From: Candidatus Magasanikbacteria bacterium UBA922
GTDB lineage: Bacteria; Patescibacteriota; Patescibacteriia; Magasanikbacterales; UBA922
Length of the DNA: 64,000 nucleotides
Direction of reading: 5' to 3'
Assembly: GCA_002293825.1 (NCBI GenBank)
Contig: DBDW01000011.1
Coordinates: forward strand, 9,436 to 73,435
Part shown: piece by piece, positions 5,166 through 60,775 of the stretch
Layout of the letters: each line of letters opens with the position of its first letter
How positions within the stretch are numbered: position 1 is the stretch's first letter
The notes under the pieces: model-generated
Told to the model about the DNA's origin: nothing
What the model saw: the letters and a program-made list of their open reading frames with translations, nothing else
Databases searched by the model: none
Program-made: the position numbers and the translations under genes

Positions 5166-5570
5166 TTACTTCAAGGTAACTTTTCCACCAGCTTCTTCAA
5201 TTTTCTTTTTCATTTCTTCAGCTTCAGCTTTAGCTACTTTTTCCTTGACTGCTTTTGGAGCTCCGTCAACAAGTGCTTTTGCTTCAGCAAGTCCGAGACC
5301 AGTGATTTCCTTCACCACCTTGATCACCGCGATTTTGTTTGCACCTGCATCAGTAAGTTCTACGGTAAAATCACTCTTCTCTTCAGCCGCTGCTGCTCCT
5401 GCTGCTGCTGGAGCTGCCATCATCATTGCTGGCGCTGCTGCTGATACACCGAATTTTTCTTCAAGAACCTTTACAAGTTCTGAGAGATCGAGCACAGACA
5501 TCTTTTCAATCTCACTTACGAGAGACTGAAATTTTGCTGGTACTTCTACTACTTTCTTTTCGTCTGACAT
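5166..5570 (-). CDS. rplL: 50S ribosomal protein L7/L12
   Basis: 134 aa. It has an Ala-rich hinge and the canonical C-terminal domain ([32 protein letters not shown]). Confidence 0.95.
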
Positions 5571-5591: not shown

Positions 5592-6116
5592 TTAAGCTGT
5601 TTTAGTATCTTTGATTGCATTAAGTGCGGTCACAAGTCCGCGGATATTTCCAGCAAGTACATTCACAAATCCAGATACTGGAGCATTGAGTGTACCGACC
5701 AATTGTCCGAGAAGTTGTTGCTTGTTTGGCAATTGTGACAATGCAGTTACTTTAGCACCATCGATAAATGCACCTTCGAGAATACCACCGAAGAGTTTTA
5801 CCGCTTCGTGAGTTTTCGCAAAATTTGCAAGAATCTGTGCAGGAGCAACCTCATCATTCAATCCAAATACGACAGACACAGCACCATCGAAACTTTTCGG
5901 ATCAGCTTCGATTCCAGCATCTTTGAGCGCACGCGCGACCAAGGTTTTCTTGGCAGCAACATACGAGACACCTTCTTTTCGGCACAATCGTCGAAGTTCT
6001 TCTGATTCTTTCACTTTGAGGCCCTGGAAGTTGGCAAATACGACCGACTTCGATTGCTTCATGGAGTCAACCAGGATACTAAACGCCTGTTCTTTTTGTT
6101 CTCTGGTTTTTGGCAT
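5592..6116 (-). CDS. rplJ: 50S ribosomal protein L10
   Basis: 174 aa L10 fold immediately upstream of rplL. Classical rplJ-rplL arrangement. Confidence 0.93.
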   Translation of the reverse strand: MPKTREQKEQAFSILVDSMKQSKSVVFANFQGLKVKESEELRRLCRKEGVSYVAAKKTLVARALKDAGIEADPKSFDGAVSVVFGLNDEVAPAQILANFAKTHEAVKLFGGILEGAFIDGAKVTALSQLPNKQQLLGQLVGTLNAPVSGFVNVLAGNIRGLVTALNAIKDTKTA

Positions 6117-6250
6117 ACAGAGTAATAAAAAATGTGGTTTTTTGAACCACAGACTTTTTCGGTATAACTCGACCTTTACCCGGTCGAATGACCGGATACG
6201 TGTTACCTCGGTAGCATATTTAATCCTCCAAATCAGAGGAAGCTACTGTC
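6117..6250 (-). promoter_or_regulatory. putative L10 (rplJ) leader, structured 5' UTR
   Basis: About 135-nt untranslated leader between the predicted promoter and the rplJ ATG. It contains hairpins (ccggtcattcgaccgg; tgtggttcaaaaaaccaca). The position matches the autoregulatory L10 leader. Assigned by position and structure only. Confidence 0.3.
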
Positions 6251-6253
6251 TAT

Positions 6254-6282
6254 GGTGAGAAGATAATACCAAGAAAAAAGAC
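6254..6282 (-). promoter_or_regulatory. consensus sigma70-type promoter for rplJ-rplL (TTGACA-17-TATTAT)
   Basis: Minus strand reads TTGACAgacgtcttttttcttggTATTAT. The -35 is perfect and the spacer is 17 bp. Confidence 0.5.
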
Positions 6283-6349
6283 GTCTGTCAAGTAATAAAA
6301 CCAATTGCTTAAAATAAGCTCCGCATAGCAAAAAAACAACGTCCTACAC

Positions 6350-6378
6350 TTGACAAAAAGGCTTAAATATGCTATTAT
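6350..6378 (+). promoter_or_regulatory. consensus sigma70-type promoter (TTGACA-17-TATTAT) driving the high-GC glycosyltransferase
   Basis: Plus strand reads TTGACAaaaaggcttaaatatgcTATTAT. It is divergent from the rplJ promoter and 67 bp from it. Confidence 0.5.
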
Positions 6379-6493
6379 ATACGGTTCACCATAGCGTGGT
6401 GGGCCGTCCCAAAATGCCTCAAATGGGTACCAAAGGATAAAGTGTCTAAGAACTTCCAAAAGCCCTTAAGAGGGGTCAAAAGGAGCACGCATC

Positions 6494-7267
6494 ATGCGTG
6501 ACAAGCTCGCCGCTACGGCGGCCATCGTTCGTTCGTTCAACAACAAACACGTCGAGAAGCAGGTCCGGAACCTCCGCAACGCCGGCATCAGCCGGGTGAT
6601 CGTCGTGTCCGACGCCACCCGTGACAAGGGTGCGACCCGTGGGTTCCTCGCGGGCCTCCTCGAGAGCGGCAACGTGCAGCTCATCGAGATGCACGAAGGG
6701 TACTCGTGGTCGAACGCCCTCAACATCGCCTTGAAGGCGGTGCTGATGGCGAACATCAGGACGCGGAACCAGTTCCGCTTCATCCTGAACGTTTCTGTGG
6801 AAGCGCAGTTCACGAGCACCCACCTCGAGACCATGCTCGATGCGGCGACCAACGACCTGTCGATCGGGGTCGTCGGAACCTCCTTCCAAGGGAAGCAGGA
6901 CGGCAACGTCATCTCCCTGGGCAGATCCTACCGCCACCCCCGAAATACGGGGATGCTGATCCGGATCGAAGCGTTCGGTCCGATGATGGGCGGCTTCGAC
7001 GCGCGCTGTGACTCGATCGGTGGGATGGAGGACATCGACTACATTCTCGGCATGTTGTCGGTGAGTAACTTCACCTACAAGATGCTGGACCTCCAGGTCC
7101 CACTCGTGGTCGGTGCAAACTACCACCAGCCGACCAAGGAGAAGAACGAGCAGGCGGCGATGGACAAGATCATCGCCCACTGGCTCGGGCTCTTCCCCGT
7201 CGGCACCAACGAGCGCCAGCGGATCGAGGACGCCATCTCGAAGATGGCTCTCGACCACCGCGACTAG
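6494..7267 (+). CDS. family-2 (GT-A fold) glycosyltransferase encoded by a ~65% GC, GC3-rich gene; compositionally foreign
   Basis: Strong SD (AAGGAG, 9 nt before the ATG). GT2 motifs are present: AAIVRSFNN resembles SIVIPTYN; RVIVVSDATRDKG resembles VVDDGSTDGT; SWSNALNIALKAV resembles GKGAALNAG; GGFDAR...GMEDIDYILGM resembles GGFDE...EDxDLxxR. Two terminators follow. Codon usage is of high-GC actinobacterial style. Confidence 0.75.
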   Translation: MRDKLAATAAIVRSFNNKHVEKQVRNLRNAGISRVIVVSDATRDKGATRGFLAGLLESGNVQLIEMHEGYSWSNALNIALKAVLMANIRTRNQFRFILNVSVEAQFTSTHLETMLDAATNDLSIGVVGTSFQGKQDGNVISLGRSYRHPRNTGMLIRIEAFGPMMGGFDARCDSIGGMEDIDYILGMLSVSNFTYKMLDLQVPLVVGANYHQPTKEKNEQAAMDKIIAHWLGLFPVGTNERQRIEDAISKMALDHRD

Positions 7268-7283
7268 CCGAATAAAACGGCAC

Positions 7284-7321
7284 GCCCTGTACTCACACGA
7301 GTACAGGGCTTCTTCATTTTT
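7284..7321 (+). terminator. rho-independent terminator (GCCCTGTACTC-acac-GAGTACAGGGC + TTCTTCATTTTT)
   Basis: 11-bp perfect GC-rich stem and a T-tract, 17 nt after the stop codon. Confidence 0.7.
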
Positions 7322-7329
7322 AGAAAACA

Positions 7330-7356
7330 AAAAATCGCCTTCTGGCGATTTTTATT
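7330..7356. terminator. second, bidirectional terminator (AAAATCGCC-ttct-GGCGATTTT)
   Basis: Stem flanked by A/T runs on both strands. It also serves the convergent minus-strand lipoprotein gene. Confidence 0.6.
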
Positions 7357-7369
7357 GTAGCGCTACGGG
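7357..7369 (-). repeat. 13-bp direct repeat identical to the 3' end of tRNA-Glu (putative attachment-site remnant)
   Basis: gtagcgctacggg at 7357-7369 equals 8455-8467 (last 12 nt of tRNA-Glu plus 1 nt). A chance 13-mer match in this window is expected about 0.002 times. Confidence 0.5.
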
Positions 7370-7507
7370 AACAAGATCTTGAAACCCTGGTGTAAGTGCC
7401 AACACAAATATGGATATCACCTGGTGCACAAAAATTAATTCAGCCAGCTAAAGATGATGCAAAGTCGTTCCAATTCGCTTGAGTCTTCGAAAAATCGAAG
7501 ACCTACG

Positions 7508-8077
7508 TTACTGTGCATTCCATGCATTCAATACTTCCTCATCAATAGGTCGTCGCATCTTTCGAATAGAACCATTTTCAACCCATGTAAGGACTGGTGC
7601 AGTGCGTGGAGTAAAAGTGTTTTCAATGAGATACGTGTATACCGGAACAAGTGCTTTTCCATCAGCCATCTGATACAGACTTGTAAGAGCGCTGAAAGTT
7701 TTGTCTGTGCTCCAAGCATTATATGAGAGACCAATGAATGGCACTCCTTCTGAATTAGTAAATACTCGATACGATTCTGGAGTTGGAGCATACGCATACC
7801 CAAGTGACTTGTAATGCTCAAGGAGTATAGAAAAATCATTGTTCGCAGCAATCGACGTCTCTATAAGTTTAATTGTCGATGTTGCTGCGATAGTTGCACC
7901 ACCACGAATATCATCATAATTTGCATATGATGGAACCTCGTCTGCACGCCAAGTTTCAATTTCTAGATCACTATTCGATGTATTGAGGGATGCAGCCTCA
8001 GGTGTTTTCGGTTCTAAACCACAACCAGTTAGTAACACGAGTAAGACAAGTAGTGAAACAGTGGAGATGAAACGCAT
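7508..8077 (-). CDS. hypothetical lipoprotein
   Basis: Signal peptide with lipobox LLTGC (MRFISTVSLLVLLVLLTGCG). 189 aa. Confidence 0.55.
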   Translation of the reverse strand: MRFISTVSLLVLLVLLTGCGLEPKTPEAASLNTSNSDLEIETWRADEVPSYANYDDIRGGATIAATSTIKLIETSIAANNDFSILLEHYKSLGYAYAPTPESYRVFTNSEGVPFIGLSYNAWSTDKTFSALTSLYQMADGKALVPVYTYLIENTFTPRTAPVLTWVENGSIRKMRRPIDEEVLNAWNAQ

Positions 8078-8083
8078 AATAGT

Positions 8084-8452
8084 CTAGTTAGATATGGAAG
8101 TGATTTGATCAGGTATCCCTGAGTCAACAATGTTGGGATGGGGACGTGTTGTCTCAGCGTCAACCATTCCAACGAACGCACGAACGAAACCTGAAAGTTC
8201 GACCAAGATCTTCATTCGTTCCTCATGCAATAAATTCGGATAAGCTTTCGTGAGTTTCTCTTGAATCTCTAGATTGTCAAAATCAAGATGCGGCATACTG
8301 AGTTGAGTGTAATACTCGAAAACCATGCAGTCAAGGGTCCACGGGGAATCGGACAACTCATAGTTCAATCTAGCGGAGGTCAATTTGAAAAAGTCCGAGC
8401 GAAAACGAAAACATCGCTCGGTTGAGCGATGTTTTCGAGGGAATTTCCCCAT
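8084..8452 (-). CDS. hypothetical protein (true start probably internal, near MVFEYYTQ)
   Basis: ORF present. However its first ~28 codons cover a perfect 13-bp terminator hairpin (8402-8431) that follows tRNA-Glu. The N-terminus is therefore likely over-called. Confidence 0.35.
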   Translation of the reverse strand: MGKFPRKHRSTERCFRFRSDFFKLTSARLNYELSDSPWTLDCMVFEYYTQLSMPHLDFDNLEIQEKLTKAYPNLLHEERMKILVELSGFVRAFVGMVDAETTRPHPNIVDSGIPDQITSISN

Positions 8453-8455
8453 GAG

Positions 8456-8527
8456 TAGCGCTACGGGGAATCGAACCCCGGTTACCAGGATGAAAACCTG
8501 ATGTCCTAACCACTAGACGATAGCGCC
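8456..8527 (-). tRNA. tRNA-Glu (anticodon UUC)
   Basis: Cloverleaf read manually: GGCGCTA acceptor stem, anticodon loop TTTTCAT, T-loop GGTTCGATTCC. The CCA end is not encoded. 72 nt. Confidence 0.88.
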
Positions 8528-8528
8528 A

Positions 8529-8822
8529 TTAAAAAATTCTATTGTATAACTCTTCTTTCTTTTTACTATTTTTCTTCAACTCAATTTCTCGTTTCCGAGC
8601 TTGAGTCTTTGAAAGATACGCCTCATAATAAACCAATCTAAACGGAACTTTGTGCTTGATTGATTTTGTCTTCCCTTGATTATGCTCTACCAATCTTCTT
8701 CTCAAATCTTCAGTAGAACCGATATACACAGTCCGATCTTGAAGACTTTCGATAACATATGTATAAAACATAGCTCCCTCTATAGTAACAGGTACACAGG
8801 ATGTCAGCCAGAGGCTGATCAC
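8529..8822 (-). CDS. GIY-YIG nuclease family protein (UPF0213-like small endonuclease)
   Basis: ...MFYTYVIESLQDRTVYIGSTEDLRRRLVEHNQG...FRLVYYEAY...REIELKK are classical GIY-YIG motifs. The probable start is the internal Met at 8771. Confidence 0.8.
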   Translation of the reverse strand: MISLWLTSCVPVTIEGAMFYTYVIESLQDRTVYIGSTEDLRRRLVEHNQGKTKSIKHKVPFRLVYYEAYLSKTQARKREIELKKNSKKKEELYNRIF

Positions 8823-8833
8823 CCTTCGGGTGA

Positions 8834-8870
8834 AAAACCTGATGTCCTAACCACTAGACGATAGCACCAT
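8834..8870 (-). repeat. 37-bp partial duplicate of the 5' part of tRNA-Glu (1 mismatch), upstream of the GIY-YIG gene
   Basis: 8834-8870 matches 8493-8529 (aaaacctgatgtcctaaccactagacgatagc[g/a]ccat). It covers the 5' acceptor strand, D-arm and anticodon-stem 5' side. Confidence 0.7.
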
Positions 8871-8977
8871 AACTTGGTAGCAAAAAGTATAGTAAAAAAG
8901 ATAAATCTTGTCAACATACACCTCATAAAAAGCAAAACGGGTACGGTGCAGATGCAACACATACCCGAACGAAGTCA

Positions 8978-48746: not shown

Positions 48747-48834
48747 GGAGAGGTGGCTGAGCGGTTGAAGGCGGCAGTCTTGAAAACTGTTGTAGGCTTT
48801 TAGTCTACCGTGGGTTCGAATCCCACCCTCTCCG
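48747..48834 (+). tRNA. tRNA-Ser (anticodon UGA)
   Basis: Class II tRNA with long variable arm. Acceptor GGAGAGG/CCTCTCC with G73. Anticodon loop CTTGAAA. Confidence 0.85.
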
Positions 48835-48883
48835 CACAAAAGACAATATTGTGGTACGTTTCAGTATACGCTATTGGCAAAAT

Positions 48884-48972
48884 GGAGAGGTGTCAGAGTG
48901 GTCTATCGTGCAGCTTTGCTAAAGCTGTGTCCGAATAATATCGGACCGAGGGTTCGAATCCCTCCCTCTCCG
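48884..48972 (+). tRNA. tRNA-Ser (anticodon GCU)
   Basis: Same acceptor stem. Anticodon loop TTGCTAA. Long variable arm. Confidence 0.85.
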
Positions 48973-49001
48973 CATGGAGAAAAACGCTACTACACGACAA
49001 T

Positions 49002-49088
49002 GGAGAGGTGGTTGAGTGGTTGAAAACAGCAGTTTACTAAACTGCCGTCCCTTTCGGGGGACCGTGGGTTCGAATCCCACCCTCTCCG
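49002..49088 (+). tRNA. tRNA-Ser-like, unusual anticodon loop TTACTAA (anticodon ACU)
   Basis: Same acceptor stem, G73 and long variable arm. The anticodon stem GCAGT/ACTGC gives a 7-nt loop TTACTAA. It differs from the GCU gene's loop by G34 to A34. Confidence 0.65.
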
Positions 49089-49173
49089 CACAGATAGACA
49101 GTATCCACCATTTGGCATACTGTCTTTTTTTTAGTATAGTAAAAATCCACTTGGATCACATAATACCTCTTAT

Positions 49174-60512: not shown

Positions 60513-60536
60513 GTCATTCCCGCGAAAGCGGGAATC
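60513..60536. repeat. 24-bp terminal inverted repeat, left copy (GTCATTCCCGCGAAAGCGGGAATC; itself a hairpin)
   Basis: Exact reverse-complement copy at 60752-60775. Confidence 0.7.
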
Positions 60537-60541
60537 CTCAT

Positions 60542-60737
60542 TTAAGAAGCACGGTCCAGCCAATTTGGATTTTCCTTTTCAATAAGCGAAATTTTCCACG
60601 TTCGATTCCATTTCTTCAGCTGTTTCTCTCGAAAAATACTTATGTTCAGTAACTCGCCGCTGTAAATCATTAGTCATACCAATATACAAAACACCATTTT
60701 TTCTACTTGCCAATATATAAACATAAAAATATCTCAT
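60542..60737 (-). pseudogene. degenerate GIY-YIG nuclease gene (frameshifted, internally deleted)
   Basis: Manual translation gives MRYFYVYILASRKNGVLYIGMTNDLQRRVTEHKYFSRETAEEMESNVENFAY*. After a -1 shift it reads LIEKENPNWLDRAS*. This is a GIY-YIG core plus the family C-terminal tail, but it lacks the central ~20 aa. Confidence 0.6.
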
Positions 60738-60751
60738 ACCCCTCCAAATTA

Positions 60752-60775
60752 GATTCCCGCTTTCGCGGGAATGAC
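60752..60775. repeat. 24-bp terminal inverted repeat, right copy (GATTCCCGCTTTCGCGGGAATGAC)
   Basis: Reverse complement of 60513-60536. Confidence 0.7.

Follow-up and report, generated by a model that had tools for sequence, protein, structure and literature searches.

An intact tRNA gene (tDNA) accompanied by a displaced copy of its own 3' end in direct orientation is described as the signature by which Islander maps the islands made by tyrosine integrases, with an accepted size range of 2-200 kb and rejection of candidates below 2 kb (PMC4383910). The asymmetric 3' end is given as one of three sublocations of crossover within tDNAs (10.1101/2020.11.02.365908, citing Williams 2002), and the Klebsiella tDNA islands described in the same source have repeats of 15-221 bp (mode 20-25) and were surveyed with size minima of 2.5-3.5 kb. 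A second related category comes from the literature on streptococcal integrative and conjugative elements (ICEs) as well as integrative and mobilizable elements (IMEs), where the term cis-mobilizable element (CIME) is used for an element that has attL and attR but no integration genes (PMC5704250). Here we describe an islet of 1085 bp lying between two direct copies of the last 13 nucleotides of a tRNA-Glu gene in Candidatus Magasanikbacteria bacterium UBA922 (assembly GCA_002293825.1, contig DBDW01000011.1). The whole stretch of 64,000 nt that was analysed is called the window below, and the coordinates of all features are collected in Table 1. The islet is real, recent and a fairly ordinary strain-specific insertion of a known type, and it is best read as an integrase-less, CIME-like tRNA-gene islet.

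Like the tDNA islands, the islet is bounded by a complete tRNA gene and a 3' fragment on the same strand, the tRNA being regenerated by sequence of the element; sister genomes contain the uninterrupted site, and the cargo at this one site differs between strains. Unlike them, it has no integrase gene (no tyrosine integrase, PF00589, is encoded), its 1085 bp fall outside the 2-200 kb range, its block of identity measures 13 bp and its composition is host-like. The resemblance to CIMEs lies in the att-like repeats at the 3' end of the target gene, which are exact over 13 nt and coincide with the boundaries of the insertion, and in a content of cargo only, with integration, recombination and transfer genes absent. 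However, no remains of ICE or IME genes were detected in the islet, the organism has no known helper element and mobilisation is putative; moreover, CIMEs have been described in Firmicutes, whereas the islet belongs to a Patescibacteria-like lineage. Finally, cassettes that depend on a recombinase in trans (integron attC cassettes, Xer-dependent dif modules and integrative mobile elements exploiting Xer, IMEX) are likewise made of one or two open reading frames (ORFs) and a conserved non-coding end without a recombinase of their own, but the target of the islet is a tRNA 3' end and not attI or dif, no attC core of the GTTRRRY/RYYYAAC type was seen in it by eye, and neither an integron integrase nor an Xer site was shown.

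The 13-nt repeat, the empty sites and the cargo

tRNA genes were called with ARAGORN and Rfam and protein domains with Pfam and NCBIfam, and the window was scanned for terminators, promoters and inverted repeats. Its GC content is about 41% and its gene content is that of a small-genome, Patescibacteria-like bacterium, the closest relatives of its tRNAs including Moranbacteria and Patescibacteria records. The 13-mer GTAGCGCTACGGG occurs on the plus strand at exactly two places, both in direct orientation, and no further copy was found in the 64-kb window even when two mismatches were allowed. It corresponds to nucleotides 61-73 of tRNA-Glu, i.e. CCCG from the 3' strand of the T-stem, TAGCGCT from the 3' strand of the acceptor stem, the discriminator A and one extra C. 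The 10 bp of its core, GTAGCGCTAC, form a perfect palindrome, and the orientation of the 13-mer is therefore set by GGG alone. Chance does not account for this repeat, because the exact 13-mer appeared in none of 100 dinucleotide-preserving shuffles of the window and only 93 of the 63,988 13-mers of the window (0.15%) recur exactly and in direct orientation no more than 3 kb away. A sequence-only reading of the same DNA had placed the repeated tRNA 3' end at these two positions, with the distal copy adjoining the second terminator of a neighbouring cassette that carries a glycosyltransferase family 2-like (GT2-like) gene. Both statements were borne out: the match is exact, and the distal copy, downstream of tRNA-Glu, stands 3 nt from the bidirectional hairpin.

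Strain variants of the locus were collected as contigs encoding an identical L10 protein and were aligned to the window by blastn. Three of them (L005, L007 and L008) belong to the same species as the window and come from independent assemblies of different sequencing runs (Logan assemblies, built with k=31); L028 represents a different, related species (GTDB species representative) whose dnaE is about 81% identical to that of the window at the nucleotide level. The islet is missing base for base from all four, and a single 13-mer is left. The flanks of the three conspecific contigs are 99.3-99.8% identical to the window and their tRNA-Glu is 100% identical to it. In L005 and L007, the tRNA-Glu and the one shared 13-mer are followed by the sequence from window position 7369 downward at 99.3-99.5% identity, and L008 covers the membrane-protein gene, the promoter and one intact tRNA-Glu before it reaches the same junction. 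The empty site reads tRNA...CCCCGTAGCGCTAC|AATAAAAATCGCC, that is, the tRNA joined to window position 7356 downward, and the junctions themselves run ...GGTTCGATTCCCCGTAGCGCTAC|AATAAAAATCGCCTTCTGGCGATTTTTTG.... In assemblies made with k=31, a false join cannot result from a repeat of 13 nt. L028 shows the order tRNA-Glu, bidirectional terminator and terminator of the GT2-like gene, with 92% identity over window positions 7369-7284.

The uninterrupted target (empty attB) that Islander looks for is thus found in L005, L007, L008 and L028: in each of them tRNA-Glu directly precedes the sequence that follows position 7357 in the window, a comparison with related genomes that the sequence-only reading had proposed, and no genome was found in which the islet genes lie beside tRNA-Glu without the repeat. 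Exact-protein look-ups recovered the islet in the window lineage only, on five contigs and in one and the same context (islet-bearing samples JGI 3300014773 and SRR5325111), and a 52-nt tRNA pattern matched seven loci in metagenomes, with the islet in none. Because the outgroup L028 has the empty arrangement and L069, from another related species, also has no islet, these alignments indicate that the islet is a derived, strain-specific insertion.

The GC content of the islet (42.1%) and its GC content at third codon positions (GC3, 28%) both equal host values. It consists of a lipoprotein gene and a small ORF, in agreement with the lipoprotein and hypothetical gene at 42-44% GC and the lack of an integrase noted earlier; indeed, Pfam detected neither integrase nor transposase domains in the islet ORFs, and no transfer genes were found in it with Pfam, NCBIfam or a database search. 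Its own strong intrinsic terminator starts 17 nt past the 3' end of tRNA-Glu and is not present in the empty-site alleles, where tRNA-Glu runs directly into the hairpin at 7353-7330 (L008, L005 and L028). This hairpin is the native tRNA-Glu terminator in the empty alleles and is shared with the convergent GT2-like gene; in the occupied allele it now closes the lipoprotein transcript. Since the islet has its own terminator right after the tRNA, the tRNA transcription unit remains complete.

A 122-aa ORF (8084-8452) overlaps the tRNA terminator, and gene callers give 80 or 70 aa instead. The 80-aa product has itself as its sole database match and no match in Pfam or NCBIfam, and it is possibly not a real gene. 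The lipoprotein, also without a match in Pfam or NCBIfam, belongs to a very rare family: one close homolog was found (P0002, 65% amino acid identity), and 13 matches at E<=1e-3 in 1.84 billion representatives. Its structure prediction (pLDDT 44) was too low for use.

Probable recombination at the tRNA-Glu 3' end

We consider it fairly probable (roughly 60%) that the islet is a small non-autonomous element that recombined in at the 3' end of tRNA-Glu by means of a recombinase that acted in trans or has since been lost, as none is encoded in the islet. Briefly, the final 13 nt of the tRNA, present in the incoming DNA as an attP-like core, would have recombined with the same 13 nt in the resident gene (attB). 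The product would be an intact tRNA gene (attL), with the original 3' end (attR) and then the native terminator displaced 1.1 kb downstream, and the islet would provide the new tRNA terminator, followed by the orphan ORF and the lipoprotein gene. The reaction would have been catalysed in trans, most probably by a tyrosine integrase that belonged to another element or to the host, or by a gene that has since disappeared. The predicted attP junction is ...AGATCTTGTT-CCCGTAGCGCTAC-TCATGGGGAAATT... and the predicted attB is ...GATTCCCCGTAGCGCTAC-AATAAAAATCGCC.... We infer that the catalyst was a site-specific recombinase and that the islet is still movable. The repeat, the exact presence/absence polymorphism, the insertion as its derived state, the islet's lack of an integrase and the existence of a related module that ends alike (see below) are, by contrast, shown by the sequences. 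In addition, the alleles of the window, L008, L006 and L069 split at the same nucleotide, right after ...GCTAC, and this shared point of divergence fits a defined crossover point.

The sequence-only reading had taken the repeats as the att scar of a decayed island. The empty sites uphold the first half of this proposal, in that the two 13-mers delimit an inserted islet, but decay from a larger island is not shown, because no integrase remnant was seen and GC and GC3 equal those of the host; it is just as conceivable that the islet was small and non-autonomous at the outset.

The related module lies on L014, a 3.2-kb contig from SRR34217543 that carries the gene of P0002. Nucleotide identity between L014 and the window is 66.6% in the coding sequence and 70% in the non-coding tail (window 7370-7507 against L014 2464-2613, 150 nt), and about 57%, i.e. 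noise, in both flanks, the contexts being otherwise unrelated. Because the homology breaks off at a sequence that agrees with the 13-mer at 10/13 positions (GTTCCAGTCGCTCTAC) and is followed in L014 by a different terminator, the alignment suggests that the 13-mer-like end belongs to the mobile module (attP-core-like) and was not duplicated on insertion. The non-coding tail may be a recombination-site arm on the element side, or an RNA element. If the L014 module lay downstream of a tRNA with the 3' end CCAGTCGCTCTAC, the module would represent a family of tRNA-targeting elements.

Several points weigh against recombination by a site-specific enzyme. No recombinase of any kind is encoded in the islet, and Pfam revealed no integrase among 20 further proteins of the window (6 of the 20 had no Pfam match at all). 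At 1.1 kb, the islet is short of the 2-kb size filter of Islander (PMC4383910), and its 13-bp identity block is shorter than the 15-221 bp given for Klebsiella tDNA islands (10.1101/2020.11.02.365908). GC and GC3 are host-like, so that a foreign origin finds no separate support in the composition. No relative of the islet was found in phage and plasmid collections, nor was a circular attP junction found in viral contigs. Finally, the 3.2 kb of L014 contain neither a partner repeat nor a tRNA or tRNA remnant, and the evidence from this contig is therefore suggestive only. Viral contigs likewise yielded no relative of the islet.

The GIY-YIG block and alternative origins

A gene for a GIY-YIG protein, itself polymorphic, lies directly upstream of tRNA-Glu, its stop codon ending 1 nt ahead of the real tRNA. 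The block (8530-8870, minus strand) is composed of tRNA nucleotides -2 to 35, two GC-rich hairpins, nucleotides 36-42 and then the ORF, so that the hairpins split the anticodon loop of a pseudo-copy of the tRNA (nucleotides 1 to about 43). L008 is without the block, its promoter being joined straight to the tRNA; its junction reads GGCGC, as against GGTGC where the pseudo-copy starts in the window, and L008 is therefore not an assembly chimera of the window allele. The same GIY-YIG/pseudo-tRNA architecture was found in distant Patescibacteria-type genomes (L125, L140, L021, L064 and L120), in which the pseudo-copies follow the local tRNA sequence and the hairpins covary. From this arrangement the block looks like a mobile element targeting tRNA-Glu, and the nearest known analogue is a free-standing GIY-YIG homing endonuclease, e.g. 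SegB of T4, described in the phage tRNA cluster (PMC2330249).

This neighbour brings in the alternative that survives best, although we regard it as unlikely: an integrase-independent capture, in which a double-strand break in or beside tRNA-Glu, maybe made by the GIY-YIG nuclease, was repaired with foreign or ectopic DNA via the 13-nt microhomology, the tRNA end being duplicated in passing. Consistent with this, the GIY-YIG gene is bracketed by its own 37-nt duplication of the tRNA 5' part, the window carries both insertions and L008 neither, and no integrase was found in the islet or among the further window proteins searched. Other tRNA-Glu loci also bear on it. A 25-nt tRNA 3' pattern used in a genome scan matched at least 120 species across phyla, and was thus too general, but it yielded L028 and L069. 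The sequence-only reading had proposed to search other tRNA-Glu loci for the 13-mer; in 6 of 120 species loci (L025, L049, L050, L060, L107 and L137) the 3' end of tRNA-Glu (14-19 nt) was present a second time, in direct orientation and 135-200 nt downstream, with one detectable tRNA each and no integrase between the partial duplications. The copy is a T-arm fragment broken by GC-rich hairpins in L025 and L049, and tandem units occur in L049 and L107. The tRNA-Glu 3' end has thus been duplicated more than once in these lineages.

Against capture, the GIY-YIG/tRNA-Glu loci of L021, L064 and L120 have no downstream copy of the 13-mer in the available sequence (that of L125 and L140 is too short to judge). 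The points at which the contigs of L005 and L007 break suggest that genotypes with the GIY-YIG gene but without the islet exist; the L014 module ends in an att-like manner though its 3.2-kb contig has no GIY-YIG gene; and the 80-aa protein amounts to a minimal catalytic domain with no DNA-binding domain, its cleavage being putative. A broader version of the idea would make the single tRNA-Glu gene the target of an integrase-independent insertion that always keeps the tRNA by part-duplication: upstream the GIY-YIG gene would travel with a copy of the tRNA 5' part, downstream the cassettes would lie between copies of the 3' end, the tRNA pieces would act as mobile arms of homology by which a nuclease drives homing from species to species, and the islet would be captured cargo; we give this scheme little credence.

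A single composite insertion, in which the GIY-YIG gene, the tRNA and the islet together split an older tRNA, was rejected on three grounds: other lineages have the GIY-YIG/pseudo-tRNA module by itself, the contig of the L014 module contains no GIY-YIG gene, and the missing tRNA nucleotides 44-60 would need an additional deletion.

Three minor observations concern these elements. A second, truncated GIY-YIG ORF lies at about 60514-60769 (minus strand) between two inverted copies, 20 bp long (ATTCCCGCGAAAGCGGGAAT and ATTCCCGCTTTCGCGGGAAT), of a GC hairpin; a hairpin resembling these is found in the GIY-YIG/pseudo-tRNA region of L064; and an antisense T-arm-like motif, GGAATCGAA, often follows the tRNA-Glu terminator.

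The order of events could also be reversed, the islet being older in the species and the islet-free strains having arisen by deletion between the 13-nt repeats (excision or replication slippage), but we give this a probability of only about one in ten. Repeat-mediated deletion or site-specific excision would indeed leave one copy, as in L005, L007 and L008. However, the outgroup L028 is empty, L069 has no islet and the islet was found in the window lineage only; besides, the second 13-mer would still need an earlier integration, and only the order of events would change.

Transposition, by which a non-autonomous transposon would have landed just past the tRNA with a 13-bp target-site duplication, seems improbable. 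The direct repeat is short, some insertion sequence (IS) families produce target duplications of roughly 13 bp, and an IS200-type Y1 transposase accompanies a related GT2 cassette in L145. Nevertheless, the islet has neither a transposase domain nor terminal inverted repeats (the best 15-nt inverted match at its ends is 10/15), the duplicated sequence corresponds to the functional tRNA 3' end to within one extra base, and the relative in L014 has a similar sequence at the same module end. Lastly, a remnant of a tandem tRNA-Glu duplicate or a meaningless chance repeat is hardly credible: the 40 nt upstream of the distal copy have a marginal similarity to tRNA-Glu (p~0.05), but neither ARAGORN nor Rfam called a tRNA at 7357-7440, an exact 13-mer is unexpected by chance, the insertion boundaries coincide exactly with the repeats, and the single copy of the outgroup and the empty-site alleles disfavour it.

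Recombination at the tRNA 3' end remains our preferred reading of the islet, and the locus, which has several other mobile features, offers a clean, base-exact case of a gene recently gained beside a tRNA by an uncultivated bacterium with a small genome, the occupied and the empty alleles having both come out of environmental assemblies. Were a recombinase that acts on the 13-mer in trans to be found, it would provide a defined attB/attP pair for a group without genetic tools.

The GT2-like cassette and the tRNA-Glu/rplJ slot

The GT2-like gene next to the islet has a GC content of 61.6% and a GC3 of 89%, against about 41% and about 30% for the window genome. Homologs at 69% amino acid identity occur in genomes of about 60% GC (L015 and L017), and a 74% homolog in the low-GC host L145, again beside an rplJ leader, is still 60.5% GC; the family as a whole spans 60.5-63.6% GC across hosts of 41 to 61% GC. 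Since its composition differs from that of the host and is native in the genomes of about 60% GC, the gene is clearly foreign and horizontally acquired.

A weak match to the 13-mer at the start of this cassette had been put forward as a degenerate att copy that would make the cassette a second tandem islet, and this did not hold. The match, atagcgtggtggg, lies at 6391-6403 (not 6393-6405) and agrees at 8/13 positions; the window contains 332 matches of at least 8/13, about one per 193 nt. Its site makes up the loop and the 3' arm of one hairpin of an approximately 115-nt leader, inside the cassette and not at its edge. Upstream of GT2-like genes this leader has been conserved in five contexts that are unrelated to one another, and the hairpin shows compensatory changes between them. 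The match, being at chance level and in a conserved leader hairpin, was rejected as an att site, and no att-type repeat bounds the cassette.

The leader (6379-6493, plus strand) is an observation in its own right. Together with a conserved promoter, it recurs in L145, L015, L017, L149 and L150, and includes a first hairpin that covaries, a GCCTCAAATGGG hairpin that is invariant and, ahead of the ribosome-binding site, a GCCCTYGAGRGGGGC hairpin. It has no match in Rfam and may therefore be an undescribed cis-regulatory RNA. Two further details concern the cassette (6345-7312): the JGI annotation of the window contig calls an antisense ORF in place of the GT2-like gene, and in L145 the IS200-type Y1 transposase gene (1204-1662) flanks the GT2 cassette in place of tRNA-Glu.

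The segment from the tRNA-Glu 3' end to the rplJ promoter is a variable slot for unrelated secreted- or surface-protein genes. L006, of the same species and with an identical L10 protein, has after ...GCTAC a different terminator, a promoter and a gene for a 206-aa secreted protein that reaches up to the rplJ promoter, and its homology to the window restarts at 6274. L069 has yet another lipoprotein gene in the slot, and the slot proteins of the window, L006 and L069 are three mutually unrelated ones. Two other contigs (L009 and L010) end within the variable region, at 6367 and 6343. Across strains and species, the tRNA-Glu/rplJ slot thus holds surface- or secreted-protein genes and an acquired glycosyltransferase-like gene.

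Table 1. Features of the tRNA-Glu/rplJ region, in window coordinates
Feature	Coordinates	Strand	Basis or remark
rplL	5166-5570	minus	
rplJ	5592-6116	minus	
L10 leader-like region	6119-6273		Rfam 37 bits, under threshold
Divergent promoter	6350-6378	plus	
61.6%-GC ORF with weak GT2 match	6494-7267	plus	Pfam E 0.008, under threshold
Terminator of GT2-like gene	7284-7309		
Bidirectional terminator hairpin, in host DNA just outside the islet	7330-7353	both	terminator scan
Distal 13-mer, attR-like, displaced tRNA 3' end	7357-7369	minus	
Islet proper, 1085 bp	7370-8454	minus	blastn against L005, L007, L008 and L028; junctions read
Conserved non-coding tail of the lipoprotein module, up to the distal 13-mer	7370-7507	minus	
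Lipoprotein ORF, 189 aa, signal peptide and LLTGC lipobox	7508-8077	minus	
Orphan ORF, 80 aa (alternative start, 70 aa)	8084-8326	minus	gene calls in L001
Weak promoter-like site	8334..8306	minus	promoter scan
Islet-borne intrinsic terminator, 14-bp stem and T run	8437-8406	minus	terminator scan, inverted repeat
tRNA-Glu(UUC), intact	8455-8527	minus	ARAGORN; Rfam tRNA 64.5 bits
Proximal 13-mer, attL-like, last 13 nt of tRNA-Glu	8455-8467	minus	tRNA sense CCCGTAGCGCTAC
GIY-YIG ORF, 80 aa	8529-8771	minus	
37-nt copy (97%) of the tRNA-Glu 5' part	8834-8870		
Promoter upstream of GIY-YIG/tRNA-Glu	8914..8886	minus	
Small membrane-protein ORF, then tsaD, then dnaE	beyond promoter 8914..8886		

Two minor observations complete the description of the window. 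The loop of the bidirectional terminator (7340-7343) reads AGAA in the window and TTCT in L008 and L005 (tRNA sense) with the same stem, i.e. a flip of the hairpin loop. Elsewhere, three consecutive tRNA-Ser genes, one with the anticodon ACT, are found at 48747-49089, the first and third of which share a 20-nt 3' end.

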